The position numbers and the translations under genes are program-made. From an uncultured Cytophagia bacterium (GTDB lineage: Bacteria; Zhuqueibacterota; Zhuqueibacteria; Residuimicrobiales; Oceaniaggregativiventaceae), in contig CAYPUH010000012.1 of NCBI GenBank assembly GCA_964413725.1, positions 1,389 to 33,388 on the forward strand: a DNA stretch of 32,000 nt. Direction: 5' to 3'. Position 1 is the first letter of the stretch. Each line of letters begins with the position of its first letter. This document shows positions 8,858-27,527 of the stretch, one piece after another. The notes beneath the pieces are model-generated. The model was not told the DNA's origin. It did not search any database and saw nothing but the letters and a program-made list of their open reading frames with translations.

Positions 8858-11800
8858 ATGTTCAGAAAACCCATCACCTGGATTGTCTTTGTCCTTCTTG
8901 CTGCGTTGAGTACGTTTGTCGCCGTGATCTTTTTTCCTCAGGCGTTTCCGATTGTCAGCATGGATTTGCAGATGGACCGGGAAGCGGCCCTGCAAAAAGC
9001 GGATGAACTGGCGGGTCGCTATCAGTGGGGCCCGGAGGAGTACGATCAGGCCGCGTCTTTTTCAGGGGACCAGCAGGTCCAGTATTATGTGGAGTTGGAG
9101 GCGGGCGGCAACGAGGCGTTGAGAGAGATGATGCAAAGCGGACTCTATCATCCGTATATCTGGACAGTTCGTCACTACCGTTCGGGAGAATCTCTCGAGA
9201 CACTTGTCATGTTCAAACCCAATGGGGATCCCTATGGCTTTTCATCCCGGCTCCCTGAGGATGATCCGGGAGCCTCCATTCCGGCGGATTCCGCCCGCAC
9301 CATCGCCGAGGACCTGGCGCGATCTGAATGGCAGGTCGACTTTTCGCCGTATCAGTTGGTCGAGAGCTCGGAAGATGTGCGTCTCGGCGGTCGGACGGAT
9401 CATACCTTTGTCTATGAACGCACCGATGAGCAGATAGGCCAGGCCTTTTATCGATTGCAGCTCACCGTGGCTGGGGATCAGCTGACGGGATTGCAGCGGC
9501 TGGTCAAGGTGCCGGACGCCTTTGACCGACGCTATGAAGAGATGCGGTCTCGCAATGAGATGCTGTCGATGTTCGGCATGGGCATTATCGTTCTGCTCTA
9601 TGGGGTGGTGGGGATTCTCATCGGTTTGTTTTATCTGTTGAAACAGCGGTATCTTTTGTGGCGAAAACCTCTGATCTGGGCAGCGTTTATCGCTTTGCTG
9701 CAAGTGTTCATGCTCGTCAATCGCTGGCCACTCATGTGGATGAATTATGATACGGCATTATCGCCCACCAACTTTTATCTGCAACGGTTCCTGTTGTTTA
9801 TCGGTGTGTTCATCGGCGAAACTCTGCTTCTGGCCGTGACGTTTATGGTGGCAGAGAGTCTATCCCGCAAGGCGTTTCCCCACCACGCCCAGTTCTGGAA
9901 ACTGTGGCGCAAGGAACCGGCCTCGACTCCACATGTCTGGGGACTGACTCTGGGAGGATATCTGTGGGTGCCCTTGACGTTTGCCTATGTCATCGGTTTT
10001 TACTGGGTTGCCAGTCGGGTTTTGGGGTGGTGGTCTCCCTCGGACGTGTTGTTTCAACCGGACCTCCTGGCCACCTATTTCCCCTGGCTCTCTTCCATTG
10101 CCATTTCATTGCATGCCGGATTTTGGGAAGAGACGCTGTTCAGAGCCATCCCTCTCGCCGGTGCGGTTCTGTTGGGCCGCCGGTTTGGAAAAACAGGCGT
10201 GTGGCTGGTTGGCGCCCTGATTCTGCAGGCACTGGTCTTTGGTGCCGGTCATGCCAATTATCCGCAACAACCGGCATATGCACGTATCGCCGAGTTGTTT
10301 GTACCGTTTCTGTTTTACGGGGTCATCTATCTGGTTTTTGGACTCTTGCCGGTGATTATCGCTCATTTTACCGTCGATGTGGTCTGGATTGCCTTGCCTT
10401 TGTTCGTCTCTACTGCCGACGGCATATGGGTGGACCGTGCCCTGGTGATCGTTCTTACCCTGGTACCCCTTTGGGTGATTCTCGTCTCCCGTTTGCGCAC
10501 CGGGAAATGGCTGTCGATTAAACCCTTTCTCAATCGAACATGGTCTCCACCCCTTCCAAAGACAATCGACGAATCAATGGATCAACCGGTCTCCACCTCC
10601 ATTTCCACCGGGTGCAGGAGAGCTCTTTGGGGAGTGGGACTCGCCGGAATTGTACTGTGGCTGGTATTCACATCATTTGATCAACAGACCATCCCCTTGC
10701 ATTTGCGCAAAACCGAGGCAATCGACTATGCCCAAACCGAGCTGACTCGGAGGGGTATTGAACTCCCCGAATCTTATCGCACGCTTACCCGGGTCAGTCA
10801 GCCTCTGGGAACCGATGACCGTTTTGTGTGGCAAACCGGAGGAATTCCGGCCTATGACTCGTTGATGGATGACTATCTCTCTCCGCCGAGATGGTTGGTG
10901 CGATATGCGACCTTTGAAGGAGATGTGGAGGAACGAGCGGAGGAATACCTCTTTTTCCTGGGAAATGAAGGCGAGTTGTTTCGTTATACACACAAACTGC
11001 CCGAATCACAGGTCGGTGCCCGATTGGTGGAAGATGACGCCAGAGACCTTGCCATTCAGCATATCAAGACCCGCTACAATCTGAATGCCGACACCCTGAT
11101 GGAAGTATCGGCTGAACCGTCAAAATTACCGGAGCGCACGGACTGGACATTCGCCTTTGCCGACACCAGTCGTTATCCCTTGTCAACCGGACAGGCCCGT
11201 ATCTGGGTGCGAATCGGAGGGGATCAGATCACCGACACCTATACCGAAATCTATGTTCCAGAGGAATGGACACGTGAGGAGCGCAATCGAACCCATGTTC
11301 TGGATATACTCAACACCACAGCCGGTGGATTGTTGCTGGGTGTTGTGTGTGCCGGTTTCATCTCAGGCATCATTTTCTGGAGCCGCAAAAGATTTTCAGT
11401 CAGGCTCTTTTTGAGTGTGGCCGGTGTGGTGCTGCTGGTGCGAATCGTCCTGTCGGCCAATTCCTGGCCCTCCATTGTCGCCCGGTTTGCCACGGCTCAA
11501 CCCTGGGATATTCAAACTCTGATTGTGCTCATCAGCATTGCCATCGGTGCTGTGGTGGCGTCCCTGGCTCTGGGAATCGTGATCGGATTTCTCCGTACCT
11601 GGATTCCCCACCAAGGTTTACAAAAACAGGGTGTGGTATTGGCGGTTTTGGCTGCCCTGGGGACACAGGGGTTCGCATCTGTTGTCCTGCACGCGAGTCC
11701 GTCTCTGGAGCCATACTGGTCTGACTATACGGTATTGGGGAATATGGCACCATTTATCTCCCTGACCCTGGGATCCGTCATGCATTTTCTGATGATGGCG

Positions 11801-12181
11801 GCTTTTTTCCTGCTTACGTTTCGATATATCAGTGCCCTCACGCATTTTGGCGGGAAACGACTCATCCTGCTGGTCCTGTTGAGTCTTGTTGCCGGATTTA
11901 TCATTGCCGGCGAGTATAACGTTCCCACGGTTTGGGCGTTTTTACTGGCCACAGTGGTACTGGGGGGACTGTTGTTGTTTCTCTATCTCTGTCTGTTCCG
12001 GCATCAGTTGAATCTGGTCTGGATCTTTACCGCCACGTTTGTTGTTCTGGAAAAACTGGCACAGGCTGTAGCATTCACACAGCCCTTTTTCTGGCTGGGA
12101 ATCGGCAGTTCTGTTGTGGTTGTGGCTGTGCTGGGTATTTTGTTTTTTCTGATGTTTTCTCGACCTCAAACGGATGCTTGA
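8858..12181 (+). CDS. Large polytopic membrane protein with a CPBP (CAAX/Abi-type) intramembrane protease core
   Basis: 1107 aa. ATG at 8858. The CPBP motifs occur in order: FWEETLFRAIPL (EExxxR), FGAGHANYP (FxxxH) and IAHFTVDVVW (HxxxD/N). Two homologous ~200-aa soluble modules are each followed by a multi-TM block. Confidence 0.85.
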   Translation: MFRKPITWIVFVLLAALSTFVAVIFFPQAFPIVSMDLQMDREAALQKADELAGRYQWGPEEYDQAASFSGDQQVQYYVELEAGGNEALREMMQSGLYHPYIWTVRHYRSGESLETLVMFKPNGDPYGFSSRLPEDDPGASIPADSARTIAEDLARSEWQVDFSPYQLVESSEDVRLGGRTDHTFVYERTDEQIGQAFYRLQLTVAGDQLTGLQRLVKVPDAFDRRYEEMRSRNEMLSMFGMGIIVLLYGVVGILIGLFYLLKQRYLLWRKPLIWAAFIALLQVFMLVNRWPLMWMNYDTALSPTNFYLQRFLLFIGVFIGETLLLAVTFMVAESLSRKAFPHHAQFWKLWRKEPASTPHVWGLTLGGYLWVPLTFAYVIGFYWVASRVLGWWSPSDVLFQPDLLATYFPWLSSIAISLHAGFWEETLFRAIPLAGAVLLGRRFGKTGVWLVGALILQALVFGAGHANYPQQPAYARIAELFVPFLFYGVIYLVFGLLPVIIAHFTVDVVWIALPLFVSTADGIWVDRALVIVLTLVPLWVILVSRLRTGKWLSIKPFLNRTWSPPLPKTIDESMDQPVSTSISTGCRRALWGVGLAGIVLWLVFTSFDQQTIPLHLRKTEAIDYAQTELTRRGIELPESYRTLTRVSQPLGTDDRFVWQTGGIPAYDSLMDDYLSPPRWLVRYATFEGDVEERAEEYLFFLGNEGELFRYTHKLPESQVGARLVEDDARDLAIQHIKTRYNLNADTLMEVSAEPSKLPERTDWTFAFADTSRYPLSTGQARIWVRIGGDQITDTYTEIYVPEEWTREERNRTHVLDILNTTAGGLLLGVVCAGFISGIIFWSRKRFSVRLFLSVAGVVLLVRIVLSANSWPSIVARFATAQPWDIQTLIVLISIAIGAVVASLALGIVIGFLRTWIPHQGLQKQGVVLAVLAALGTQGFASVVLHASPSLEPYWSDYTVLGNMAPFISLTLGSVMHFLMMAAFFLLTFRYISALTHFGGKRLILLVLLSLVAGFIIAGEYNVPTVWAFLLATVVLGGLLLFLYLCLFRHQLNLVWIFTATFVVLEKLAQAVAFTQPFFWLGIGSSVVVVAVLGILFFLMFSRPQTDA

Positions 12182-13862: not shown

Positions 13863-16529
13863 TTATTTTTGCTGTTTTTTAAATTCCAACCGGTAGAGAT
13901 GATTCCAAGGTAGCTCCAGGTCATCGGGCAGGAGCTCACCAGTGCCATCCAGGGAATAGCCGGCCCCGATCAGGCGGTCGAGGGTGAGTCGGACGGTGCC
14001 GGCAGCGGTGTCGGGATTGGGTGTCTGGATCCACAAGGTCCCCGCCATACCAGAGTCATCGATGTCGAGTTTGATGGACGCCGGGCCAAAAAAGGTTGGC
14101 AGCGACAGGACAGAGAGTCGTGCACCGGCACGTAGCCAGCTTTTCGGCAGGCCTGCCAGCAGATGAAGATCGGTGTCGCGTTCCAGCAGCAGCATGTTAC
14201 GCGTGACGCGCACCATCTGGATATTTCCCACAATGTGCGGGATATCTCCGGTCACACGGGTTCCCTCCCCTTTGGGAGACTGTTCCTCCCCATAGAGAAG
14301 CGTTGGTGTCGCGTGATTGGCAACGGCATAGAGCAATTCCTCCGCCTTGTCGGCGTTGCCTCGCCAGAGGCAGGCTAGGGCGCGATGACCGTCAAAGATG
14401 GGCCATACGCCGTCATCGAGCCAGCCGACGCTGTGCGTCAGTCCCTGGACTGTATGCCGATCCAGCAAATTCAGGGTTCCGTCGATCAGCGATTCTGTGG
14501 GAGAAAAAAGTTGACCCACATAGAGCGCATGTAACATGGCCCACTGCCCACGTTGTGGCACATCGGTTGCCGGATCATAGTCCATCTTTATCGGCAGGAA
14601 CCAGTTTCCGTATTCATCGCGTCGCTTGTCGCGCTCAACGGCACGCCGAAAGGATATGATAAAGTCTTGATATTCGTTCTTCCAGGCCTCGGCTTCGGGT
14701 CGTCGCATCACCTGGGCGGTCTGAACCGCCTCACCCAGCGCGATAAGGCTCCAGATGACGCTTCCATATGAGGTACCGATGCCGGCGATACCGCCGTCGG
14801 TCAGCCCGGCGGGCATAAGTCCATAGTTGAGTGCCGCGGGATCGGCAAGGGTTTGTTGCCGGAGCTCGATGACGTATTGAACCGCGCGTTCCAGTTGGGA
14901 CCAGTGCCTGTCGAGCCAGGCCCAGTCCTGAAACAGGCGGGCATAGCGGCACATGCTATAGATCAGATGGCCGGTTTCCCGATGCAGCAGGGCGGGTTTC
15001 ATCACGCCGGCCCGGCCATCGGGATCTTGATATTCCAGCATAGCCTGTATGGTTTGTCTGGCGGCCTCTTTATCGTCCAGCCAGGTGGCGACATCGAGCC
15101 CCCAGCCGGCATCACCGTACCAGAGTCCGCGATAGAGGGTTGGCCCGGGTTGAAATTGATAATGACCATCCACGTTTTCCCGGACTTGATACAGGGTGCG
15201 GATTCCCCCGTCGATCAGAGCCTGGATGCCCGCGTCCGGAACGGTCAACCGGTCCCAGGGCAGGGAGACGTGTTGCCAGTAGTCTATGGCCCGGTTTTGT
15301 TCATCATCCAGGTCAGGGAACGTGACCGGCCCCTCCGCAACACCATGGGTCACCAGAACATCGACCTGTCTGCAGGTGTCGGCAAAGGACAGCACCCAGT
15401 CGCTTTCCATCCGCTTGGCCTGTGTAAACGCGGGTCGGGTGGTGAGAAAGGGGGCATCATCAAAGAGCAGGGTTGCTGTGGCCGTATCGACGGTCAGGGG
15501 GCGCAGGGTATTGAGCCGCAACTGAAGGGTTCCTTCGGAACCGCTTATCTCGGTACGAAGCATATCCCGGCGCACCAGACCGGCATCGAGGAGCTCCATG
15601 CCGGCATCGATATGCCTTTCCGCGTTGGGTGTCGCGGCACCACTGATGACCTGGTTTTTTGTGACGACCTTTTCTGGCTGAAACAACCAGATGCCACAGA
15701 GGAGTACGTTGGGATCCTGACCGCGTGGCGAGGCGGTCACTTCCACAGATAGCCACCCGTCATCATCTATATCCTGACCCGCAAAAAAGAAGACCTGGGG
15801 AACATCCTGTCCGCCTGCCTCGATCAGGTCGACGGTCTGTTTTTCAGCACCTTCTACCAGCAGATCCATCAGCCGGACGATCTGGCCGTGGCGATAGACC
15901 TCGATAAAGCCGAGGGCCACTTTGCGTCTGGAGCCGGCCGGCACCTGCACATCGTAGCGGATGGATCGTCCCGTTCCCCAGGCCACGCTTTGAAACGCCG
16001 GGTCCCGATCCGGATGCGATTCCACCCAGGCGGGTGAGCCTGTCAGGCCCTCGTAACGCCGAAAAGAACTGTCGGGTGACATCGCTCCGGGCAGCCGTAT
16101 GGTGTCCGGTATCATGGCAAATGCTGACTGGCGCCAGCGGAGATCGTTTTCGCTGTGCTCTGTCAGGATCACCGGAATGCGAGGATCCAGGAGAGTCTGT
16201 GAAGTGCTGGCATCGGTCGCTTCTTTCACCTCCACTGCCACGGTGGTTTTGGGACGGGCATAGGGTCCGGGACCAAAGTCGTACACCAGGCGTCCCTCGT
16301 CATCCACCAGGGATTTCTGCCAGTCGTCTACCAGACAGATGGGCGTGGCCCAGCGGGCGGGTGGATACTCGTGCGTGACGGAATAATCCGCACGGATCGG
16401 ATCAGATCCCAACAACAGTACCCCCACGGTTATTATGATTATGGCCCTGGTGATACCGCTCCTGGAATCCTGAATAGCTGCTGATGGTGTTGTAAAAAAT
16501 GATCTCGCAAATCGTGATATCGGCAACAT
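13863..16529 (-). CDS. Secreted or anchored 888-aa protein, possibly an (alpha/alpha)6 six-hairpin glycosidase-like fold
   Basis: GGAG lies 4 nt upstream of the ATG at 16527-16529. An N-terminal hydrophobic segment (AIIIITVGVLLLGS) is present. The C-terminal half has the motifs GLWYGDAGWGLD, LEYQDPDGRAGV, GLMPAGLTDGGIAG and GWLDDGVWPIFDGH, reminiscent of six-hairpin glycosidases. The functional call is by eye only. Confidence 0.5.
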   Translation of the reverse strand: MLPISRFARSFFTTPSAAIQDSRSGITRAIIIITVGVLLLGSDPIRADYSVTHEYPPARWATPICLVDDWQKSLVDDEGRLVYDFGPGPYARPKTTVAVEVKEATDASTSQTLLDPRIPVILTEHSENDLRWRQSAFAMIPDTIRLPGAMSPDSSFRRYEGLTGSPAWVESHPDRDPAFQSVAWGTGRSIRYDVQVPAGSRRKVALGFIEVYRHGQIVRLMDLLVEGAEKQTVDLIEAGGQDVPQVFFFAGQDIDDDGWLSVEVTASPRGQDPNVLLCGIWLFQPEKVVTKNQVISGAATPNAERHIDAGMELLDAGLVRRDMLRTEISGSEGTLQLRLNTLRPLTVDTATATLLFDDAPFLTTRPAFTQAKRMESDWVLSFADTCRQVDVLVTHGVAEGPVTFPDLDDEQNRAIDYWQHVSLPWDRLTVPDAGIQALIDGGIRTLYQVRENVDGHYQFQPGPTLYRGLWYGDAGWGLDVATWLDDKEAARQTIQAMLEYQDPDGRAGVMKPALLHRETGHLIYSMCRYARLFQDWAWLDRHWSQLERAVQYVIELRQQTLADPAALNYGLMPAGLTDGGIAGIGTSYGSVIWSLIALGEAVQTAQVMRRPEAEAWKNEYQDFIISFRRAVERDKRRDEYGNWFLPIKMDYDPATDVPQRGQWAMLHALYVGQLFSPTESLIDGTLNLLDRHTVQGLTHSVGWLDDGVWPIFDGHRALACLWRGNADKAEELLYAVANHATPTLLYGEEQSPKGEGTRVTGDIPHIVGNIQMVRVTRNMLLLERDTDLHLLAGLPKSWLRAGARLSVLSLPTFFGPASIKLDIDDSGMAGTLWIQTPNPDTAAGTVRLTLDRLIGAGYSLDGTGELLPDDLELPWNHLYRLEFKKQQK

Positions 16530-18220: not shown

Positions 18221-19993
18221 TTATTTCGTATGAGTATTATAGAGTATCCGTTTACCCACCTCTGCCAGAATGACCGGGATATCGCGGATCGCATTGCGGT
18301 CATAGTTTCTGGTATCCTCATCCAGATCTGACCAGGGAACCAGGTTGGGATGAAGTTTATAGGCATCGTCACGTTCTCCGTATTCCCAGCCATGGATCCA
18401 TTTTTCCGCATTCCAGCGGTTGTGTTCAGCTTTTGCCAGAGACTCGATCATCGCCGCACCAAGATGTCGTTCCATTTCGTCCCCGTCAGGTTCGGGATCG
18501 CCTGTGGTGCGGTCGATGATTTCCGCTCCGGCACAACGCAGCTTTACCTTCAGGTGATCGGCCTGGCTTCGGTTACTCGCCTTATACTCTTCCGGCAAAA
18601 TCGACCAGGGTACGGCTGCCGGTTTGAGCGGGATTCCTTTCTCTTTGAGTTTTTTGAGCTCTCCCTCCAGATAGCGGGCGTGGATATGCCTGGCCATGTG
18701 ATCGAGTTCTTCATCGATCACGTACAGAGGCGAAGCGGATTCTCTTTCGGGGTCGAGGAAGAACAGACGGTTCCGGTCCTCCCGCATTGTTTTATTCGGG
18801 ATAAAACCCGAGTTGCAGGACGCGATGATCCTGAACGGTGTTTCGGTCTTGATCAGCTGCAGCCAGGAGATCAGAGAAAAGAGAACCGTGTCGTTATCGA
18901 CAAAGAGATAGACAACGTCATAACGGTTCCGCACCAGCCGGTCTGATAATTCCGGTTTGGTGAGGCTCTCCAACTCTCTGTCGATCCACTCGATTTCGAG
19001 GAGATTCTGAATGTGATGAGTCCGCCCGATATACTTTTGAAAGCCATTCGAGCGGTTGCTATCGATCACTGTGACACGGGCTTTTTCTGTGTTGATATAC
19101 TGTCCCAGCAAGGCATGCTGGGTCAGAAATGACCGGGCGAGAGTGTTGAATCCGAGGATGAGGATGCCGGGGGGTGGGGTCGTATTTTGGGTGACCGGTT
19201 TAAAGACATCCGGTGCGACTTTTTTATACAGCAGCCGGGCGCTGTTCTCGTAGGGGTTGAACACGCGGGCATCAAAATTGTCGGTGTTTTGGATAAAAAC
19301 CTCGTGGTGCTGGAGCTCCCGTTTGAGAGCCGGATCCGTGATCATGGCATAGGCGGTGAGGAAACGACTTTGTTTATGGTCCTCCTTGATGTGGAACAGC
19401 CCTTTGATGATCGACACATTGATAAAATCGTTGTCGGTTACGGCAAAGATATAGCGAGCGTGCTCGGCTTTAATCTGTCTAAAGACATCGGCGTCTGTGG
19501 GATTGTGTTTCAGAAACAGGACTTTCGAGGTTTTGAGTGAGGTGATCCAGGCGTTACCCGGATGTTCCGTGACGACCAGGATTTTGTTGTGCTGTCCTCC
19601 GGAAGGCGTTTTCATGTGGACACGGCTAAAGTTATCGATCATGGGGGCCAGAGAGTCATTATACCCCAAAAAGACAATGTGGTCACGCAGACGGATCATT
19701 CTGATGCGATAGAGATCGTCCGCGACAAAGGAGAGCGCAGTCTTGATGGCGGTCGTGGCCAGCAACAGAGGGGATAACCAGCGCGCAACATTGAGTAGAG
19801 AGAAAAACGCGACATCGTCCTCAACGGCTCCGGATTCGAGGATGAACAACTGGATCGAGAGATAGAGCGATTTGAGAACATCCCCGGCACCGGCATCGGT
19901 ACGATAAAAACCGATGGTTCCGGCCACGGTCAGGAGTACCGCACAGGCGCCGAGGAGATACCATTCGTAGCGTTTGATAACCTGGTTGAACAT
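18221..19993 (-). CDS. Membrane protein: 2-TM pore-loop-like N-terminus + two degenerate TrkA_N/RCK Rossmann domains + C-terminal bipartite RyR-repeat module
   Basis: 590 aa. TM1 is WYLLGACAVLLTVAGTIGFY. A P-loop-like stretch follows (SLYLSIQLFILESGAVEDD), then TM2 (FFSLLNVARWLSPLLLATTAI). The RCK-like blocks are HIVFLGYNDSLAPMI...VLFLKHNPTDADVFRQIKAEHARYIFAVTDNDFINVSII and GILILGFNTLARSFL. The C-terminus (SLAKAEHNRWNAEKWIHGWEYGERDDAYKLHPNLVPWSDLDEDTRNYDRNAIRDIPVIL) closely matches the RyR-domain consensus. A second RyR-like repeat (MARHIHARYLEG...VPWSILPEEYKASNRSQADHLKVKL) precedes it. Confidence 0.8.
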   Translation of the reverse strand: MFNQVIKRYEWYLLGACAVLLTVAGTIGFYRTDAGAGDVLKSLYLSIQLFILESGAVEDDVAFFSLLNVARWLSPLLLATTAIKTALSFVADDLYRIRMIRLRDHIVFLGYNDSLAPMIDNFSRVHMKTPSGGQHNKILVVTEHPGNAWITSLKTSKVLFLKHNPTDADVFRQIKAEHARYIFAVTDNDFINVSIIKGLFHIKEDHKQSRFLTAYAMITDPALKRELQHHEVFIQNTDNFDARVFNPYENSARLLYKKVAPDVFKPVTQNTTPPPGILILGFNTLARSFLTQHALLGQYINTEKARVTVIDSNRSNGFQKYIGRTHHIQNLLEIEWIDRELESLTKPELSDRLVRNRYDVVYLFVDNDTVLFSLISWLQLIKTETPFRIIASCNSGFIPNKTMREDRNRLFFLDPERESASPLYVIDEELDHMARHIHARYLEGELKKLKEKGIPLKPAAVPWSILPEEYKASNRSQADHLKVKLRCAGAEIIDRTTGDPEPDGDEMERHLGAAMIESLAKAEHNRWNAEKWIHGWEYGERDDAYKLHPNLVPWSDLDEDTRNYDRNAIRDIPVILAEVGKRILYNTHTK

Positions 19994-20095: not shown

Positions 20096-22372
20096 TCAGG
20101 CATCGAAAAATTGAATAGATCGAAGACAATTGCCGTCAAGAGCTCGGGTGATATAACCGGACCGGAATCGCAGATCAAATTTCACCAGCCCGCACACGCG
20201 AATATGCTGTTGATCGGTGGGGGGCGCTGACATATAGAGAGATCGGCTCTGACCATCCTTCATCACAAGATCGATTCTTCTCCAGATACACTCGCGCTTG
20301 ACATGATGTTTGTCGAGCCTGCTAAACCGGATGGTTTGATCATCGATGGTGATTTCTGTAACGTCTCGAAGATCGATTCGGATTTTTTGCGGTTCAATTC
20401 CCGGATCTTCCGGAGCCCCCTCGAGTGCCGTGAGTGCCAGTGATTTGATTCCTTTAAATTCGATTTTCTTGCCGGTGTGATACACAAACTCGCCTTTAAG
20501 CGCATTCCAGTCCACAGAGTCTGCAAAGGGAACAGCCCGGGTCTGTAACCGAACCGAGTCCACGCTTTCCACCGGCACGGCTCGCATTCTGCCATCTACG
20601 GCAATATTGATCGATGAAACCTGTTCACCACAGCCCGCTCCCCGGGATACCGCCAGGAGCACATCATGACGTGTATCATCGATGAGGCTGACCGCTACCT
20701 GCCTCCAGACACACTGAACGGGTCTGTTCTCTTTGTGTGCGGAAAAATAGATGGTTTTTGTTGCCTCGATTGTTTCTCCAAATACCAGGGACTTTATATA
20801 TTGCAGATTGATCCTGATTTTGGTGGGACGGATCTGATCATCATCGGAGGGTTCTTCAGTAAAATCCAGATGGTCGCCGCTCATGTCGGTATGTCTGGCG
20901 ATTTGGGTGAAGGTGGTTTTCTCTCCGTTTATGAGCGTCAGTTCGCCCGGAATGTGGTTGTCATAGTTGCTTTTGGGTTGATAGAATGTACGCCATTCAC
21001 CGGCATCGACAGGATGGCTTCCGGACTTTACAGTGGGTCTCTCAACATTCTGCGGGCTGTTCTTTTTTTCCAGCTCTTGAATCAATTTGTCCAGAGCTTG
21101 TTTTTTGCCCCGCACACTTTGTGTGACGAGTTTTCTGATCCGGTACAATTCTTCCCGGCCGTTTAATTTTTTTACCGCCGCAATCGCCGAACCGTAAAAA
21201 GAGTCCTCGTCGATATCTTCCAATAGATCGAGAATACGGCTGAGGGTTTTCTCACGTTTCGAATCGCCGGTGTACTCCAGTAGGGTCTCTATGATTTTGC
21301 TGTTTGTTGTCCCCCTACTCTCATCCAACAAATCATAGAGATAATTCCATTTTTCAGAATCGGAGAGTGTCGAGATACGAACAGCATCCAGTCCGGGACC
21401 CTGGGTGCTAAAACTCGCTTTGATAGAATATTTGAGAGCCTCGAGTATGGGGTGGGGGTTTTTCTCGCCCTCCGGAGTCGTCAGGCTATAGAACAAGAGT
21501 TTTGCAAGTTTAACCGTCTCACAATGGCCCTTGTGAGTCGACAATCTGAACCGCTCATCGCTGCTCAACCGGCAAAACAAGTCGATCTCTTTTCCCTGCC
21601 ATTTTGAATGAATTTCTCGCCAGATTTGCTTTGAATTTTTGTCCTCAATTCCTCCTACACCAAATGTCTGCAGCTCTATTTTTGAAATGGCGTCAAGAAT
21701 ATATTGTTTGACCTCCTTTTGTGAGACCTGTGGATCCAAAGAGTCATTTTTTGGGGGATTTACTTTAGTTGATTCTGGCTGAGACTCCTGACCCGGGGAT
21801 AGAGTCTGCTGCTTTTTATGTGTAGGCTCCGGAGGTTGGGCACTCGGCCCAGCAGGAGATGTATCTGCGGTTTCAGCGGCATATTTTATTCTTTCGAGAG
21901 TTCTCTCCACAGACTGGAGGATATTCTCCCGTGCACCGAGAAAGTTTTTTCGAGAGTCCGTATAATCGACCAGTGGTGTGACATCACCGGGAATGATTTG
22001 CATCCTGACCAGCCATGAAGCCGGATGGTGGGGTGGAACCGACCAGGGTTCGACCAGGATGGGGACGATCTCGAGGGTTTCACGGCTTTTCTCCTGGATT
22101 CTGGGCAACTCTTTGGTTATGATAAACTCGGAATTGAGGAAATCCCGACTCAATAAAAGAATGGCAATATCCGCCCGATCGATTTCGGCGGCAATTTTCC
22201 GTTCGTATTCGATGCCCGGCAGGGTTTTCAGATCGTGATCGTACCAGACCTTTACGCCCTGCCAGCGAAGGCTGTCCTCCAGAAACGGTATGATCTGAAA
22301 CGGATCGTTTCTATCCACCCAGGAGGAATTTTTATGCGCGTAACTCACGAAAATATTGATTTGTCGATCCAT
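20096..22372 (-). CDS. TIR-domain protein (ThsB-like candidate NADase/signal synthase) with a helical middle region and tandemly duplicated C-terminal domain
   Basis: 758 aa. GAGG lies 5 nt upstream of the ATG at 22370-22372. The N-terminus reads INIFVSYAHKNSSW...GVKVWYDHDLKTLPGIEYERKIAAEIDRADIAILLLSRDFLNSEFIITKELPRI. This matches the TIR_2 pattern (FxSYxxxD/N, w.D, pG, the hhhhS block, then the conserved Glu). A low-complexity P/Q/S linker spans aa 165-220. Two homologous ~140-aa C-terminal repeats follow. Confidence 0.88.
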   Translation of the reverse strand: MDRQINIFVSYAHKNSSWVDRNDPFQIIPFLEDSLRWQGVKVWYDHDLKTLPGIEYERKIAAEIDRADIAILLLSRDFLNSEFIITKELPRIQEKSRETLEIVPILVEPWSVPPHHPASWLVRMQIIPGDVTPLVDYTDSRKNFLGARENILQSVERTLERIKYAAETADTSPAGPSAQPPEPTHKKQQTLSPGQESQPESTKVNPPKNDSLDPQVSQKEVKQYILDAISKIELQTFGVGGIEDKNSKQIWREIHSKWQGKEIDLFCRLSSDERFRLSTHKGHCETVKLAKLLFYSLTTPEGEKNPHPILEALKYSIKASFSTQGPGLDAVRISTLSDSEKWNYLYDLLDESRGTTNSKIIETLLEYTGDSKREKTLSRILDLLEDIDEDSFYGSAIAAVKKLNGREELYRIRKLVTQSVRGKKQALDKLIQELEKKNSPQNVERPTVKSGSHPVDAGEWRTFYQPKSNYDNHIPGELTLINGEKTTFTQIARHTDMSGDHLDFTEEPSDDDQIRPTKIRINLQYIKSLVFGETIEATKTIYFSAHKENRPVQCVWRQVAVSLIDDTRHDVLLAVSRGAGCGEQVSSINIAVDGRMRAVPVESVDSVRLQTRAVPFADSVDWNALKGEFVYHTGKKIEFKGIKSLALTALEGAPEDPGIEPQKIRIDLRDVTEITIDDQTIRFSRLDKHHVKRECIWRRIDLVMKDGQSRSLYMSAPPTDQQHIRVCGLVKFDLRFRSGYITRALDGNCLRSIQFFDA

Positions 22373-22540: not shown

Positions 22541-23497
22541 CTAATAGCCATGGAGAAATGCGTTGATGGCATTTTCGTCATTATCGAGAACGATCAGGTT
22601 ATCGTGCTCTCTCCACTCGTGGTCCAGACTCAACGCATCCGCTGCCCGGCCACTGCCGGCGACGACACCCACTCGTGCTCCCAGGGCCAGTGCCAGCCGG
22701 TATTCAAAGGCGGCGATTGTACCGCCATTGATCCCCAGGAGGTGCACCTGTGTCGGCCTGACACCTTGCGCGAGGAGATCGGTCCAGATCTGCAAGGGCT
22801 CCAGATTGGAAAACGTGGACCCTGTGGTATACACCAACCGATCGTAGCGAGGATCAGTTCGAGTGGTGTCCGGGACGTGTTGTGGCAGATAGCCGAACAG
22901 ATGGAACTCTGGAGCAGAGTTGTTGTTGCGAAGGGAGACGGTTGCCTGTCCCACCAGGCCGGGGATGCCGGAGAGGGTTCCTCCGGAGATCACTGTCCCT
23001 GTGCAGTGTTTGAAAACATGGTTCAAGAGTTCGAGATTCTGTGCCTCTTGGGTGTCCGGCATCTGTTCGGCACCCCCTGCGATGATCGTGACGGGTTGGG
23101 AAAAGTGCTCTGTATGAAGAGCGCGATCTTGAAGATATCGGATGGTCTCATCACCGAAATGAACGACTTGTGCCAACATTAAAAGAGTGTCGACACGAGA
23201 GAGAATCGGGGACAGAACAGGATCATCGCCATTCAGCCCGACCAGTCTGTCCCGTTCGAGCTCAACATCTTTGACAGAAAGACGTGTCTGACCTGAAATC
23301 AAAAGATTCACTGCCTTGAGATAGGTGTGTTCGCTCTCCTCCGGCGATTGCTGCAATAACCATCGGCCCAGATTCAGATAGTCTCGGGCCGAACTCCCGT
23401 TCAGACAAGTCTGATTGCGACACGCCGGCATGTCATGATGTTGAGCATTGGCGACGGATTCTTTATTCTGTTTTTGGTTGTCTGCGTTGGGTTTCAC
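22541..23497 (-). CDS. SLOG/LOG-like Rossmannoid protein (candidate nucleotide-signal sensor or processor) with an N-terminal helical extension
   Basis: 318 aa. Three Gly-rich loops occur in LOG/SLOG order: PVTIIAGGAE, GTVISGGTLSGIPGLVGQA and HLLGINGGTIAAFEYRLALALGARVGVVAGSGRAAD. The last is comparable to the LOG PGGxGTxxE motif. The track start is a GTG at 23497, overlapping the upstream gene by 35 nt. The first ATG is at 23429-23431. Confidence 0.65.
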   Translation of the reverse strand: MKPNADNQKQNKESVANAQHHDMPACRNQTCLNGSSARDYLNLGRWLLQQSPEESEHTYLKAVNLLISGQTRLSVKDVELERDRLVGLNGDDPVLSPILSRVDTLLMLAQVVHFGDETIRYLQDRALHTEHFSQPVTIIAGGAEQMPDTQEAQNLELLNHVFKHCTGTVISGGTLSGIPGLVGQATVSLRNNNSAPEFHLFGYLPQHVPDTTRTDPRYDRLVYTTGSTFSNLEPLQIWTDLLAQGVRPTQVHLLGINGGTIAAFEYRLALALGARVGVVAGSGRAADALSLDHEWREHDNLIVLDNDENAINAFLHGY

Positions 23498-26153
23498 GAC
23501 TCGATCCGCTCTGTTCTACAATCACATAACCCGCCAGTGCCAACATGTCGGGATATTTTTTAATGGTGTCGCGATCTTTGTCCTGTTCACCGGAAGACAG
23601 GTCTGAATACATTACCATCGATGGGTGGTGTTTGCGATAATCATTGCGGATCTCTGCAGGTGTCCAGCCCTGGTTTCTTCTGAATTTCATCCAGCCCTCG
23701 TGTTCCTTTTCTGCCAGGACTTCCAGTTGGGATGTGCCGGTGTCCGCATTTTTTTGTTTTAGAAAGGTTGGAAAATTGATCACGGTTTCCGAGGTCAGCT
23801 CAGTTTTGTGGCGGAGTTCCAGTCCCACCGCATTTAGGTTGGTTTGAATACGCCTGGCCGCTTCGATGTTGTCCAATTTGGCATCCATGGGCAGCAAATT
23901 AAAGGCGCGGTCATAGGCATCGGGTTTGATACGGCTGCCGAGCCATGATGCATGAATCCTGGGTGCGAGAATGTCGGCAATCCGATCCTGTTCGCTTTTG
24001 CTGTCGACCACCATAAGCGTTTTAAAATCATCCAGGGGCACACACAGGGACAGCACTGGAGTGGAAGGCAAGCTGGATTGGATGATCCCACCGGGTACGT
24101 CTGATTTGAGATAGGAGAGCAATTTGCTCATGGACCGTGACCCGTTGAGATAATCTGGAATGGAAATCAGGGCATTGAGCACACCCCAATCAATGTGCAG
24201 GGCTTTATTCCCGGTGAGTCTGAGCAATCCACGAATAAACAGAGCTCTTCGGACCGGAAAGCTATAATCTTCCTCGTCTTTTTCCCAGCACCGGGATTCA
24301 AGATTATAAAGCAATCTCGGATTGGGGCCCAGAACATTCAGATATCCATGCAGTCGGCTTTTAAAATCTGGTCCTTTTTTAAAGACAAAATCGTTAAACT
24401 CTTTCAGTTCCCGCTCATGTTTGGTGATCTCTGCGTCGGTTGGGGAAGCGACAAGGGTGGGTTCTTTCGGCCCGAATTGCTCCAATGTATAGCTGGTGGC
24501 ACCGGCAAAGAAAAAGATGCACTTGCCAATGGGGTGGGTCATCTGACCTTCCTGGAACTGTCCGTCCTGCATAGGTGCGAGCAGGTATTGCAGCCATCGG
24601 TATTCCTGGGCATCAAACTCGTCCCAGAACACAAAAGGAGTGTTCCCTCTTAGGGCGGAATCGCGTACCTGATGGAACGCGCCGATCAGATCGTTCGGAT
24701 CGGAAAACTGGGACAAATTAAAGACGAGATAATCAAAGGATTTACCGTTTATGCCCTCTTTTGCCAGTTGTTTGACTGCAAACGATTTTCCGGCACCCGG
24801 AGGACCAAAGATCGCGATAGAAAGGGGTTGCTCCGCATCGCCCTCGCGTACATAGTCAAAGACAAGGTTGCGGATATTTCGCAGGTTTTCAATCTCGGTT
24901 CGATCGACGGTGACATAGTTTTTGATTTTTAATGACGGAACATTAAAGAGTTCCGTTTCTCCATGCTGGACAATGCGCCGGGCCAATACTGCCAGAGGTG
25001 TACGGTTGTGAAGAAAGCCATAGTTGTTTTCGAGCAGCGTCCAGGATTCTATTCTGTGTTCAAAATCCTGATGATCGGGATTGGGGACAAATGATCTGGG
25101 GATGTCTTCCTGCTGTGTAGCGAGTGTTTGGGCTATTGTTTCAGCGGGAAAGGCAGGGGGGTGGGAGCCCTTTTGCAGATGACCGGTGTCCACCAACTGT
25201 TGGTTGGCCCGAATTCCCGTGATGACAGCCTTTTCAAAGTGAGAAACCCGTTTGTCGTGATGTTCAAGGCAGTCTAGGTCGCTGGTCAATCCATAGACAA
25301 AGCCGGCTGTAAATGTGAGTTGATTGCCAATGACGGTTTTGCCTTGACTTTGTGCCCGCTCTCCTTCCATATAGAGTGCGTCAAAAAAGAGGCGGTACTG
25401 GGTAGCGTCCCGTTCGTTTGAGTCGTGAATACAAAAGGTACCTTCCTGACCGATGGTGACGATGATATGGCGGCAGAGTCGACGCAGGTGTTGAAATGGA
25501 CCGTTTGAACGCAGTGCGTAGGCAAGATCGCCGGCAGTGCGTTCCCAGGAGAGCCCTTTGCTGATCATCGCATTTTCGCGCCGCAAATCATTGATAGAAA
25601 TGACAAGGATCAATCTGTTGGTGTTGAGGCGGGTGACTGTATCCCACAACGCGCCGGTACCCAGGGGGCGAGCCATCTTGAGCACCACCCAGGGAGATGG
25701 ATCGGTGGATTCCAGCAACGCGGTTGGCCAGGCCGGTTTGGATGTTTCATTGCGGAATCCCAGATATCCATCGTCGAGAACGACGACGTTTGCCCGGTCA
25801 GGTGCCGTTTCGATCTTGAGAGCGGAATAGTCACACCGGTTGTAGCAGGCATCATTGTATCCCAGCAGGGTTTTGACATGCCAGTGTATGCCATCGTCAT
25901 CGACAGAGGATCTTTGCCATTCGGCGTAGGCTTGTTGTTGAATGGACCGGCGCAAACGGGTGTTCAGACCATAGGATACGGACCGTCCGGATTGCTTCAG
26001 GATAGTGTGGAGCAGCCGTGACCCACCTACAGAGTCTTCGATTCGGGTACCGCTTTTTACTCTGGAACTGGTCTGTTGCCGCTTGCCTTTGTAAATGTTG
26101 TTGTCGATAACCACATCGCCGGTGACATGGATATGGGGAGGGGACGACATCAT
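23463..26153 (-). CDS. Multidomain ATPase: ribokinase/pfkB-like N-domain (degenerate) + classical AAA+ core + C-terminal bipartite RyR-repeat module
   Basis: 896 aa. The Walker A is SIAIFGPPGAGKSFAVKQLAKE, the Walker B is PFVFWDEFDA, and the sensor-1 region is CIFFFAGATS. The C-terminus (LEVLAEKEHEGWMKFRRNQGWTPAEIRNDYRKHHPSMVMYSDLSSGEQDKDRDTIKKYPDML) is an RyR domain, preceded by an RyR-like repeat (ILAPRIHASWLGS...FNLLPMDAKLDNIEAARRIQTNL). The N-terminal ~320 aa show the pfkB motif order: HVTGDVVIDNN, SVGGSRLLHTILKQSG, VVVLDDGYLG, LILVISINDLRRE, IIVTIGQEGTFCI, and VIGNQLTFTAGFVYGL in place of the GAGD block. Confidence 0.8.
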   Translation of the reverse strand: MMSSPPHIHVTGDVVIDNNIYKGKRQQTSSRVKSGTRIEDSVGGSRLLHTILKQSGRSVSYGLNTRLRRSIQQQAYAEWQRSSVDDDGIHWHVKTLLGYNDACYNRCDYSALKIETAPDRANVVVLDDGYLGFRNETSKPAWPTALLESTDPSPWVVLKMARPLGTGALWDTVTRLNTNRLILVISINDLRRENAMISKGLSWERTAGDLAYALRSNGPFQHLRRLCRHIIVTIGQEGTFCIHDSNERDATQYRLFFDALYMEGERAQSQGKTVIGNQLTFTAGFVYGLTSDLDCLEHHDKRVSHFEKAVITGIRANQQLVDTGHLQKGSHPPAFPAETIAQTLATQQEDIPRSFVPNPDHQDFEHRIESWTLLENNYGFLHNRTPLAVLARRIVQHGETELFNVPSLKIKNYVTVDRTEIENLRNIRNLVFDYVREGDAEQPLSIAIFGPPGAGKSFAVKQLAKEGINGKSFDYLVFNLSQFSDPNDLIGAFHQVRDSALRGNTPFVFWDEFDAQEYRWLQYLLAPMQDGQFQEGQMTHPIGKCIFFFAGATSYTLEQFGPKEPTLVASPTDAEITKHERELKEFNDFVFKKGPDFKSRLHGYLNVLGPNPRLLYNLESRCWEKDEEDYSFPVRRALFIRGLLRLTGNKALHIDWGVLNALISIPDYLNGSRSMSKLLSYLKSDVPGGIIQSSLPSTPVLSLCVPLDDFKTLMVVDSKSEQDRIADILAPRIHASWLGSRIKPDAYDRAFNLLPMDAKLDNIEAARRIQTNLNAVGLELRHKTELTSETVINFPTFLKQKNADTGTSQLEVLAEKEHEGWMKFRRNQGWTPAEIRNDYRKHHPSMVMYSDLSSGEQDKDRDTIKKYPDMLALAGYVIVEQSGSSRETQRRQPKTE

Positions 26154-26330: not shown

Positions 26331-27527
26331 TCACTCATTATGATGTTGTCTGCGTTCGAGCATGGTTTTGATGCCATCCAGGGGAAGCGCGGCGCTGGCC
26401 AGATAGTTGGGCAACCGGTGCTCTTTGCCAAAGATCCATTCACATGCTCCGTGCTGCTGAAAATGATGCACCATGTCGATAACGGTCTGATCGGCCAGAT
26501 CTGAATCCACCAAATCCAGGGTATAGACGAACCATCCCGTGGGTGTGGCCCAGTAGGCGCCGTTCTGGTACTCATCGCGGGTCCAGGCCTTTTCCCAGTA
26601 GACACCTCCTGGCAGATGGCGAATCTGGCCGTGTCGAACGATTTCCCCATAGTGATTTTTGAAATAGGTTGCGATGGTCTGCGATTGCACCGTATCGGCC
26701 ACGCCCAGATAGACCGCAAAGGCCGAACCCCAAATGTCGTGTTCTTTGCAGAGCGCGGTTGCAGCCCGGAACAATCCCGTCTGCGGATCCCAAAATACCT
26801 CCCGAATGCGATCGGCAACCCGGCCGCCTTTTTGTCGCCAGTGGTGGGCATCGCTGTCGCGTCCATCCCGTTGTAACAAATCCGACAGTTGCCGGCAAGC
26901 TTGAACAAACAGCAATGAACTGAACAGCACATCACCCTGTTTGCTCACCGTATCGGTAAAGCCATAGGGACACCGGTCCCGTTCCGGACCGGGTACGATA
27001 TGTATCAGGCCGGTTTCGGCGTTTCTGGGCGCGGCGTTCATTGCCCGGATCAGGGCGGGCAGGATTTCCCCGAGTACGTCCTCATCTCCGGTTTTTTGGA
27101 TGGTATGCCACGCCATATCCACGGTAAATTGCGATCCGTCGGCGGTCGGGTGTTTACCCATTTTGCCGAAATTGGGTTTGTAAATGGGAGTGCCGTCGAA
27201 TGTCACACAATCCACTCCGGCGCCGTCGGAGCGAATGCTGCGGACGAACAGCCGGCAGGCGTCAATCAATTCACGGTCGGAATAGGACTCGATAGAGCCT
27301 TCCAGGGTATAGGCATAGTCGCGCAGCCAGAACGCTTCATAGCCCAATCCCACTTGTGGCGGAAAGGCCGCCGTGCTGTCGTTCATGGTCCGTCGGGAGG
27401 CCCGGATCAGACGGTTCGCTTCAGTTTTAAGCCAGGTGACGGCGTCTGAAAGTGCAAGTACGGATTCGTTTTGAGGTCTGGTAGTCATAGCACTTGTAAA
27501 AAGAGTACCCAATATCAGGACAAGCAT
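26331..27527 (-). CDS. Secreted six-hairpin (alpha/alpha)6 glycoside-hydrolase-like protein
   Basis: 398 aa. The N-terminus is signal-like (MLVLILGTLFTSAM). The motifs EAFWLRDYAY, CPYGFTDTV and EYQNGAYWATPTGWFVYTL resemble GH63/GDE/trehalase-clan toroid enzymes. The family is not resolved by eye. Confidence 0.55.
   Translation of the reverse strand: MLVLILGTLFTSAMTTRPQNESVLALSDAVTWLKTEANRLIRASRRTMNDSTAAFPPQVGLGYEAFWLRDYAYTLEGSIESYSDRELIDACRLFVRSIRSDGAGVDCVTFDGTPIYKPNFGKMGKHPTADGSQFTVDMAWHTIQKTGDEDVLGEILPALIRAMNAAPRNAETGLIHIVPGPERDRCPYGFTDTVSKQGDVLFSSLLFVQACRQLSDLLQRDGRDSDAHHWRQKGGRVADRIREVFWDPQTGLFRAATALCKEHDIWGSAFAVYLGVADTVQSQTIATYFKNHYGEIVRHGQIRHLPGGVYWEKAWTRDEYQNGAYWATPTGWFVYTLDLVDSDLADQTVIDMVHHFQQHGACEWIFGKEHRLPNYLASAALPLDGIKTMLERRQHHNE

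Follow-up and report, generated by a model that had tools for sequence, protein, structure and literature searches.

Pore-loop channels gated by RCK domains, among them GsuK, Slo (BK and Slo2.2) and CASTOR/POLLUX, share a common order of first transmembrane helix (TM1), pore helix, loop, inner helix and tandem Rossmann-type RCK domains, and four such chains build a gating ring of eight RCK domains. Channels of this kind are well known, and to our knowledge none carries an RyR domain or a LESG-type filter. Here we describe a gene whose predicted 590-amino-acid (aa) product has this same order of parts, encoded within a 32,000-nucleotide stretch (hereafter the window) of contig CAYPUH010000012.1 (assembly GCA_964413725.1) from an uncultured Cytophagia bacterium. 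In contrast with GsuK, Slo and CASTOR, this channel-like protein has LESG in place of TVGYG, carries an additional RyR Repeat12-like tail and has lost both GxGxxG loops of its RCK-like domains, and its setting is a TIR/SLOG conflict system rather than ion homeostasis.

The second set of relevant systems belongs to Thoeris defense. Type X Thoeris consists of the TIR protein ThsB and the ion-channel effector ThsK; phage protection has been shown for the system of Bacillus sp. BH32 (10.64898/2025.12.03.692087). The window resembles type X Thoeris in pairing a TIR gene with a predicted pore-loop ion-channel effector, but differs in having four genes, with AAA-RyR and SLOG partners. In type I Thoeris, the SLOG domain of ThsA binds 3'-cyclic ADP-ribose (3'cADPR) (10.64898/2025.12.03.692087). 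ThsA (SLOG plus SIR2) and TRPM2 have a SLOG domain in common with the window, and in ThsA systems this domain accompanies a TIR gene; here, however, SLOG is found on a separate 318-aa protein without a recognizable effector domain, and its fusion partners in related loci are RelA_SpoT and RyR domains instead of SIR2. The N-terminal SLOG/LSDAT-type domain of TRPM2 binds ADP-ribose.

A third point of comparison is provided by phage RyR-domain proteins that act on the cADPR isomers made by bacterial TIR immune proteins. They either bind 2'cADPR, 3'cADPR and cADPR, with affinities in the nanomolar to sub-micromolar range, or cleave these molecules via an H/D dyad (PMC13232231; 10.64898/2026.06.04.730250). 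The phage proteins RyR Tad and RyDEP are like the protein described here in having PF02026, the ligand-site residues H, W, K/R, H and D, and, probably, a Repeat12-like two-repeat unit. In contrast with them, the domain in the window is host-encoded, forms part of a channel-like protein and, in another protein, is joined to an AAA+ ATPase, and shares an operon with a TIR gene, so that it would be a signal receptor and not a viral countermeasure. In the literature searched, phages and animals are the only sources of described RyR-domain nucleotide binders, RyR or TrkA effectors go unmentioned in the searched text and supplements of the TIR survey (10.64898/2025.12.03.692087), and neither RyR nor TrkA is mentioned in two Aravind-lab surveys on NAD/ADP-ribose and nucleoside triphosphate (NTP)-dependent conflict systems.

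A pore-loop module, tandem RCK-like domains and an RyR tail in one protein

A first-pass annotation of the window had proposed a channel-like effector with a non-potassium pore loop and degenerate RCK domains, and both the open reading frame (ORF) and all of the motifs that it quoted are present where it had placed them. The protein is made up of three parts, a pore-loop module followed by tandem RCK-like Rossmann domains and then by an RyR (Repeat12-like) domain of probably two repeats. A full-length AlphaFold2 model computed with 101 homologues reached a predicted local distance difference test score (pLDDT) of 92.6 and a predicted template modeling score (pTM) of 0.88, and displayed helices at residues 10-30, 39-51 and 66-100, a loop at 52-65, two Rossmann-type domains, and helical repeats at 428-487 and 506-585. 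Within the pore module, the loop at 52-65 had a pLDDT of ~75 and the rest at least 90. Whole-chain Foldseek comparison with the PDB retrieved the TrkA gating ring (E 7e-8), the complete GsuK channel (E 1.3e-7, 617 aligned columns) and the LjCASTOR gating ring (E 4e-7), with further matches to Slo2.2, BK and MthK; the tandem-RCK protein TrkA was aligned over ~410 columns. When the single protein sequence was compared with the PDB by phmmer, only RyR repeats were found (RyR1, RyR2, RyR3 and the Bacteroides thetaiotaomicron "putative ryanodine receptor" 3NRT).

A 198-aa ORF on the opposite strand (18350-18946, plus) sits entirely within the channel-like gene, and is most likely spurious given the strong conservation of the minus-strand frame.

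The N-terminal module has the predicted fold of a channel pore

Hydropathy analysis indicated membrane helices at residues 11-30 and ~62-90 with a shorter hydrophobic stretch in between, which, along with the AlphaFold2 model and the Foldseek matches to pore modules, bears out the proposed layout of TM1, short helix and loop, and second transmembrane helix (TM2). The segment between the helices is acidic (2 K/R versus 6 D/E, with a mean net charge across the family of -1.5), while the stretch following TM2 is basic (mean charge across the family +2.4), and this charge distribution argues for an N-in/C-in topology with cytoplasmic Rossmann domains. Folding of the first 100 residues alone yielded a pLDDT of 90.4 and reproduced the short helix at 39-51 (13 residues); the re-entrant short helix and loop that a pore reading presupposes were accordingly found by single-chain prediction. 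The best 50 listed Foldseek matches of this isolated module, among 350,542 PDB chains, were all tetrameric cation-channel pore modules, including those of Slo2.2, NaK and its mutants, KcsA and KvAP, with TM-scores of 0.50-0.57 for nearly all, probabilities mostly of 0.8-0.96 and identities of ~20%.

The N-termini of 45 family members were also aligned by hhalign with a small alignment of K+/NaK pores. The two sets were in register over 91 columns (P 5e-4, probability 31%): TM1 coincided with TM1, S-L-Y with the beginning of the pore helix, ILESGA with TVGYGD, and TM2 with the inner helix. This is in agreement with the earlier proposal that TVGYG is replaced by LESGA: the T-V-G-Y/F-G selectivity filter is not present, and ILESGA (family consensus vLESGa) occupies the filter position within SLYLSIQLFILESGAVEDD, located at residues 42-60.

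The pore motif of the family reads Y44-x3-Q48 L49 F50-x-L52 E53 S54 G55. Among the 101 homologues, which are ~25% identical to the window protein, G25, G28, Y44, L49, L67, A70, R71 and P75 are conserved in at least 90%, and Q48 and F50 are present in 86 and 87, respectively. Conservation is looser at the filter position, where 71 homologues have L52, 58 have E53 (Q, N or D occur as well), 66 have S54 and 65 have G55. The same trend is apparent in the information content: the pore helix and TM2 reach 2.34 and 2.42 bits, respectively, and the filter loop 1.99, compared to an average of 1.85 over the whole protein. The pattern in the pore helix and TM2 is not what would be expected of a mere membrane anchor, and the loosely conserved filter argues against tight ion selectivity. 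Collectively, there is good support for a pore-loop channel in both predicted fold and layout, and homology of the module to K+/NaK pores is likely, although significant sequence support for it is absent.

The LESG string recalls TLESW, the filter of bacterial sodium channels. Kinship with these channels was considered and set aside, as hhalign produced only an 18-column local match that was not significant (P 0.038).

Both glycine loops of the RCK-like domains are lost in the window protein

Pfam TrkA_N (PF02254) was detected at residues 134-199 of the window protein with an E-value of 7e-5 and 23.6 bits, just below the cut-off of 23.8, and all 80 of the family members that were scanned match TrkA_N (best E 1e-24). 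Together with the Foldseek match to the TrkA ring, this upholds the earlier description of RCK-like Rossmann domains, and supports an arrangement of the two TrkA/RCK-type Rossmann folds like that in the tandem-RCK gating rings of TrkA, GsuK, CASTOR and Slo. The two stretches that had been quoted for an RCK-like strand order, VLFLKHNPTDADVF (residues 158-171) and ARYIFAVTDNDFINVSII (179-196), fall within the first domain.

In the first domain, LGYNDSL (GYNDSL at residues 110-115) stands where the family has CGLGxKG, and in the second, LGFNTLA (GFNTLA at 281-286) takes the place of VGxGxMG. The acidic residue that closes strand 2 (E/D in the family) is replaced by T142 in the first domain and is kept as D311 in the second. 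The first glycine loop is complete in 81 of the 101 homologues and the second in 73, whereas both are lost in the window protein and in its closest homologue (P0003, 53% identity). The claim of degenerate RCK domains therefore holds for the window protein but not for the family, most of which keeps the loops, and judged from the alignment, degeneracy is a feature of this lineage and not a family rule. Given the loss of both loops, ligand sensing in the window protein would most likely proceed via the RyR domain alone.

Of the families against which the first-pass annotation had wanted the protein compared, only TrkA_N was recovered; Ion_trans_2 (PF07885) was matched by none of the 80 full-length members, and Castor_Poll_mid was not among the 25 commonest Pfam matches of these members. 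Membership in CASTOR/POLLUX/DMI1 was likewise not upheld, as the link is structural only, through the LjCASTOR ring. The CASTOR-type filter, ADxGNHA, also differs from the LESG of the window protein.

The RyR tail retains most ligand-site residues of a phage cADPR-binding protein

The first-pass annotation had overlooked the C-terminal RyR domain (PF02026), which was detected at residues 514-580 with an E-value of 2.5e-14 (53.7 bits versus a cut-off of 27.4), and which also ends the protein encoded by gene A, the first gene of the same operon. Pfam detects the second repeat only, but a more divergent first repeat (428-487) aligns both with repeat 2 and with the phage protein RyR Tad, and the putative two-repeat unit matches RyR3 Repeat12 in Foldseek over ~190 columns (E 3.5e-6, TM-score 0.54). 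Within the first repeat, H438, Y441, W463, N474 and R475 are invariant or nearly so in the family.

As a reference for the ligand site we used RyR Tad, that is, gp68 of phage vB_PatP_CB1 (sequence from NC_048653), in which 3'cADPR is reported to be bound by H129, W132, K147, H154, K170 and D171 (10.64898/2026.06.04.730250). In the alignment, H129 corresponds to H524 of the channel-like protein, W132 to W527, K147 to R541, H154 to H548 and D171 to D565, while K170 is replaced by Y564; five of the six positions are thus kept in the aligned sequence, K147 as arginine. Across the 101 homologues, H524 is present in 101, W527 in 94, K or R at 541 in 94, and D565 in 83 with asparagine in 14 more. The AAA-RyR protein encoded by gene A matches RyR Tad in residue type at all six positions.

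A large family that recurs beside TIR, SLOG and AAA-RyR genes

A profile search of 1.84 billion representative sequences returned 23,194 matches at E ≤1e-3 and 4,258 at E ≤1e-30. These included at least 150 clusters at 50% identity with E ≤4e-123, nearly all of which span the whole profile and most of which are 570-630 aa in length. Besides TrkA_N, all 80 scanned members match RyR, and 15 of them match Slo-like_RCK; compared with the PDB, the family profile found RyR Repeat12 (1e-38), TrkA (9e-21) and GsuK (4e-14). As far as can be told from these searches, the architecture defines a large, taxonomically broad and uncharacterized prokaryotic family. No relative was found in the IMG/VR viral contigs scanned, and a plasmid search gave only nine matches, all weak or partial. 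An Arcobacter plasmid encodes a split pair of NAD-binding and RyR genes followed by a DUF4062 gene, with type I restriction and integrase genes beside them. A scan of genome contigs with the family recovered only four loci. One further relative adjoins a DUF4062/AAA_22 protein.

The channel-like gene is the last conserved gene of an operon in which it follows genes A, B and C, all on the same strand, with a gap of 102 bp after the end of gene C. The conflict-system setting implied by the first-pass annotation is borne out by the domains encoded upstream, AAA-RyR (gene A), SLOG (gene B) and TIR (gene C), and by their recurrence elsewhere. To assess this recurrence, metagenomes were scanned with a family sub-alignment, which confirmed 412 relatives, and 80 loci were taken (loci are cited here by numbers with the prefix L); neighbors were identified from our own ORF calls by phmmer with the window neighbors, clustering and Pfam. 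Counts cover genes no more than 6 kb away in those 46 loci whose flanks extend for 3 kb or more. The commonest neighbor was an AAA-RyR homologue (18 of the 46 loci), followed by a TIR_2 protein (16), a DUF4062-STAND-TPR protein (9), a SLOG protein (8) and a ClpB-like ATPase (4). TIR or DUF4062 was found in 24 of the 46 loci, and any of TIR, DUF4062-STAND, AAA-RyR and SLOG in 32, which amounts to about two thirds of related loci.

The TIR gene is often immediately adjacent to the channel-like gene and co-directional with it (e.g., L046, L052, L036, L030-L032, L076 and L004), and full-length homologues of gene A adjoin the channel-like gene in 21 related loci (e.g., L078:6956-9769). The SLOG proteins of related loci are mostly fusions, of the form RelA_SpoT-TPR-SLOG-RyR or, once, NUDIX-RelA_SpoT-SLOG-RyR, and the alarmone-synthetase-like RelA_SpoT domains suggest a second nucleotide-making or nucleotide-processing arm of the same network. 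Examples of SLOG fusions are found at L032:3266-5755 and L078:3772-6819. In ~12 related loci (e.g., L010, L029, L077 and L079), ORFs of 137-225 aa that cluster with RyR proteins adjoin the channel-like gene; these may be stand-alone RyR-domain proteins or gene fragments, and there are none in the window.

The relationship to described Thoeris effectors was also examined. No PADLOC effector model for the described types (ThsA, ThsC to ThsL) matches the window protein, and the TIR partner of ThsK, which is of the ThsB_TIR (PF08937) type, has no relative in the window or the related loci. The apparent ThsK of Vibrio sp. JCM 19052 (L090:3369-3995) is a 208-aa membrane protein encoded between two ThsB_TIR genes, with no Pfam match, a K+-filter-like TLTYGGF motif and neither an RCK nor an RyR domain. 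ThsK was rejected as a member of the same family on account of its size, its lack of RCK and RyR domains, and an hhalign comparison with the family pore profile that was not significant.

A proposed TIR-gated effector channel and its alternatives

Based on the data presented above, we think it probable, with room for considerable doubt, that the protein is a Thoeris-like effector channel in which an RyR tail, an RCK ring and a poorly selective pore are gated by a TIR-made nucleotide. According to this model, infection or stress would cause the TIR protein to turn NAD+ into an ADP-ribose-derived signal, which would be bound in parallel by the RyR domains of the channel-like and AAA+ proteins and by the SLOG domain. 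The change upon binding would be relayed via the RCK ring to the inner helices and open a poorly selective cation pore, and the ensuing dissipation of membrane potential would stop growth. The architecture, fold, family conservation, gene neighborhood and retention of ligand-site residues were observed here; the tetrameric state, conduction, ion preference, ligand identity, direction of signaling and role in defense that this model assumes are inferred.

Several observations weigh against such a model. For the pore, the Foldseek E-values of the short module were just 0.13-0.6, which is attributable to the shortness of the query; Ion_trans_2 was matched by none of the 45 N-terminal fragments, as by none of the full-length members; and a comparison of the N-terminal profile with PDB sequences was not significant, with K+ pore domains appearing only at E 2-4. 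In the family alignment, the moderate conservation at the filter position is unlike that of true selectivity filters, and the window protein is without the P-x-P-W that follows the loop in the family, having a two-residue insertion there. For the signaling role, the phage glycosidase RyDEP has as its catalytic dyad H75/D117 (PMC13232231), the counterparts of H524 and D565, and the domain could therefore degrade the signal instead of sensing it. RyR3 Repeat12 also binds ATP and ADP, as judged from PDB entry titles, which include an AMP-PCP structure as well. Moreover, 14 of the 46 loci have no TIR, DUF4062-STAND, AAA-RyR or SLOG gene within 6 kb, and neither PADLOC nor NCBIfam has a model that matches the channel-like protein.

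Among the alternatives, the least improbable, though still unlikely, is that the protein is a housekeeping cation channel that serves ion homeostasis in response to ordinary adenine or pyridine nucleotides, its RyR domain binding ATP/ADP and its RCK domains NAD(H)/ATP, and that the proximity of TIR and SLOG genes is incidental or regulatory and not defensive. The very large size and taxonomic breadth of the family, the 14 loci without any of the four scored classes of conflict genes, the nucleotide-bound RyR3 Repeat12 structures, and the GxGxxG loops that most members keep, like nucleotide-binding KTN/RCK domains, would all be consistent with this, as would the gating of TrkA by ATP/ADP (PMC6987127). 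However, a homeostatic channel would not be expected to have TIR, DUF4062-STAND, SLOG or AAA-RyR genes nearby in 32 of 46 loci, often adjacent and on the same strand, nor to lie in a defense-island setting on the Arcobacter plasmid or to display the presence/absence variation and decay seen in a close relative of the window (described below). The filter, which is not of the K+ type and is loosely conserved, and the loss of both RCK nucleotide loops from the window protein also argue against it.

It is rather improbable that the protein is a channel effector with a ligand other than a TIR product, such as the product of a RelA_SpoT-like nucleotidyltransferase, or one gated by contact with the AAA+-RyR partner. 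The RelA_SpoT-TPR-SLOG-RyR and NUDIX-RelA_SpoT-SLOG-RyR fusions beside family members point in this direction, as do the AAA-RyR proteins, which are the single commonest neighbor, and the ClpB-like ATPases in four loci, and the TIR domains of STAND proteins (clusters c1 and c3) could be effectors and not signal generators. The window operon, however, has a TIR gene and no RelA_SpoT gene, the ligand-site residues of the RyR repeat match those that bind TIR products in phage proteins, and the neighboring TIR domains keep a conserved glutamate at what we take to be the catalytic position. The least likely alternative, a membrane-tethered regulator without a pore whose RyR domain sequesters or hydrolyzes the TIR signal to set a threshold or shut the system off, would be in keeping with the RyDEP-like dyad, with the sponge or glycosidase activity of phage RyR proteins and with the lack of significant pore homology by sequence, but an anchor is unlikely to keep a re-entrant helix along with Y44, Q48, L49, F50, R71 and P75, the 50 best listed PDB matches of the module are all channel pores, the pore and tandem-RCK arrangement matches that of whole GsuK, Slo and CASTOR channels, and the ~320 residues of RCK-like domains would serve no obvious purpose in a sponge.

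RCK-gated pore-loop channels, TIR-associated ion-channel defense, and phage proteins that bind or cleave cADPR isomers are all known; what is new here is a host-encoded RyR domain fused to a channel-like body and to an AAA+ protein within a TIR/SLOG operon, a combination undescribed in the literature searched. If a TIR product does gate the pore, the protein would represent a new and widespread class of Thoeris-like effector, assign a receptor role to host RyR domains, and make available a bacterial system, small and tractable, in which to study how an ADP-ribose-derived messenger controls a channel. It would further be relevant to the long debate over how cADPR acts on RyR channels and to the question of whether the ligand-sensing modules of RyR and TRPM channels arose in bacteria. 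More tentatively, it is possible, though we would not call it probable, that RyR Repeat12 domains of the host serve as receptors in a widespread, undescribed TIR signaling network in which channel-RyR, AAA-RyR and SLOG-RyR proteins are encoded near TIR or DUF4062 genes, and that the protein is a cation channel gated by a cADPR-type nucleotide. The nucleotide-sensing modules of animal RyR and TRPM2 would then have in it a prokaryotic counterpart and possibly their evolutionary origin. Thousands of entries labeled "NAD-binding protein" or "RyR domain-containing protein" could be re-described.

The window operon and its decay in a close relative

The features of the channel-like gene and its operon are collected in Table 1.

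Table 1. Positions of the channel-like gene, its parts and the neighboring genes in the window
Feature	Position	Strand	Basis
Channel-like gene, 590 aa, ATG start	18221..19993	-	ORF; Pfam RyR and TrkA_N; AlphaFold2
TM1, residues 11-30, with near-invariant G25 and G28	19904..19963	-	Hydropathy; AlphaFold2 helix 10-30; conservation
Putative pore helix (39-51) and filter-position loop LESGAV (52-57)	19823..19879	-	AlphaFold2; hhalign; conservation
TM2/inner helix, residues 66-90, with near-invariant L67, A70, R71 and P75	19724..19798	-	AlphaFold2 helix 66-100; conservation
First RCK/TrkA_N-like Rossmann domain, residues ~105-270	19184..19681	-	Pfam TrkA_N; family profile
Second Rossmann/RCK-like domain, residues ~277-420	18734..19165	-	AlphaFold2 strand/helix pattern; Foldseek
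Divergent first RyR-like repeat, residues 428-487	18533..18712	-	Conserved columns; alignment with repeat 2 and RyR Tad; Foldseek
Canonical RyR repeat, residues 506-585, with H524, W527, R541, H548 and D565	18239..18478	-	Pfam; PDB matches
Gene A, 896 aa: uncharacterized N-terminal domain, MoxR-like AAA+, two-repeat RyR tail	23463..26153	-	Pfam
Gene B, 318 aa: SLOG domain (LSDAT_prok, PF18171, E 5.3e-11)	22541..23497	-	Pfam
Gene C, 758 aa: N-terminal TIR_2, then long uncharacterized C-terminal region; putative signal generator	20096..22372	-	Pfam; PADLOC
Downstream ORF, 354 aa	17000..18064	-	No match in Pfam, PADLOC or NCBIfam

The product of gene A begins with an uncharacterized domain of ~400 aa, followed by Pfam matches to bpMoxR/AAA and RyR (E 4.2e-12), and its family profile aligns to the entire two-repeat RyR3 Repeat12. 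The Pfam model that matches gene B is named "SLOG in TRPM, prokaryote". As called, genes A and B overlap by 35 bp (23463-23497); the GTG start of gene B may be located more downstream, or this may be a case of translational coupling.

The TIR_2 domain of gene C spans residues 7-114 (nucleotides 22031-22354, E 3.6e-11) and is matched by PADLOC as ThsB-like (E 5.9e-11). The glutamate in its ...IITKEL... stretch aligns with the glutamate conserved in the TIR genes that adjoin other family members, which is presumably the catalytic glutamate of TIR domains. By eye, residues ~480-758 of the same protein appear to contain two copies of a unit of ~100 residues (KIRINLQYIKSL... and KIRIDLRDVTEI...). 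This region had no Pfam or PDB match, and the repeat-like part could be a sensing part.

A contig collinear with the window at a DNA identity of ~85% (L001:8172-12386 versus window 27755-17041) is without the segment corresponding to window positions 25948-20035, a 5.9-kb deletion in which genes B and C are lost entirely and gene A for the most part. Its channel-like gene has in addition an internal deletion of 555 bp, leaving a 409-aa product. These deletions imply that the system is dispensable and decays as a unit. The 354-aa ORF downstream of the channel-like gene was considered as a further member of the system and is not counted as one, its membership being doubtful, as a homologue was seen only in this close relative and in none of the other loci.

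Flanking genes

A scan for promoters and terminators gave signals at background level and was uninformative. The flanks encode acyltransferase, NUDIX and DUF554 proteins as well as glycoside-hydrolase-like enzymes. On one side, an 888-aa ORF without a Pfam match (13863-16529, minus) is located between a DegT-type aminotransferase gene and the system, and on the other side lies a glycoside-hydrolase-like gene (26331-27527). A 1107-aa ORF further away (8858-12181, plus) has many hydrophobic stretches, no Pfam match at 1e-3, and the motifs WEETLFR and HANYP, which we take to be typical of intramembrane proteases of the CPBP/CAAX type.

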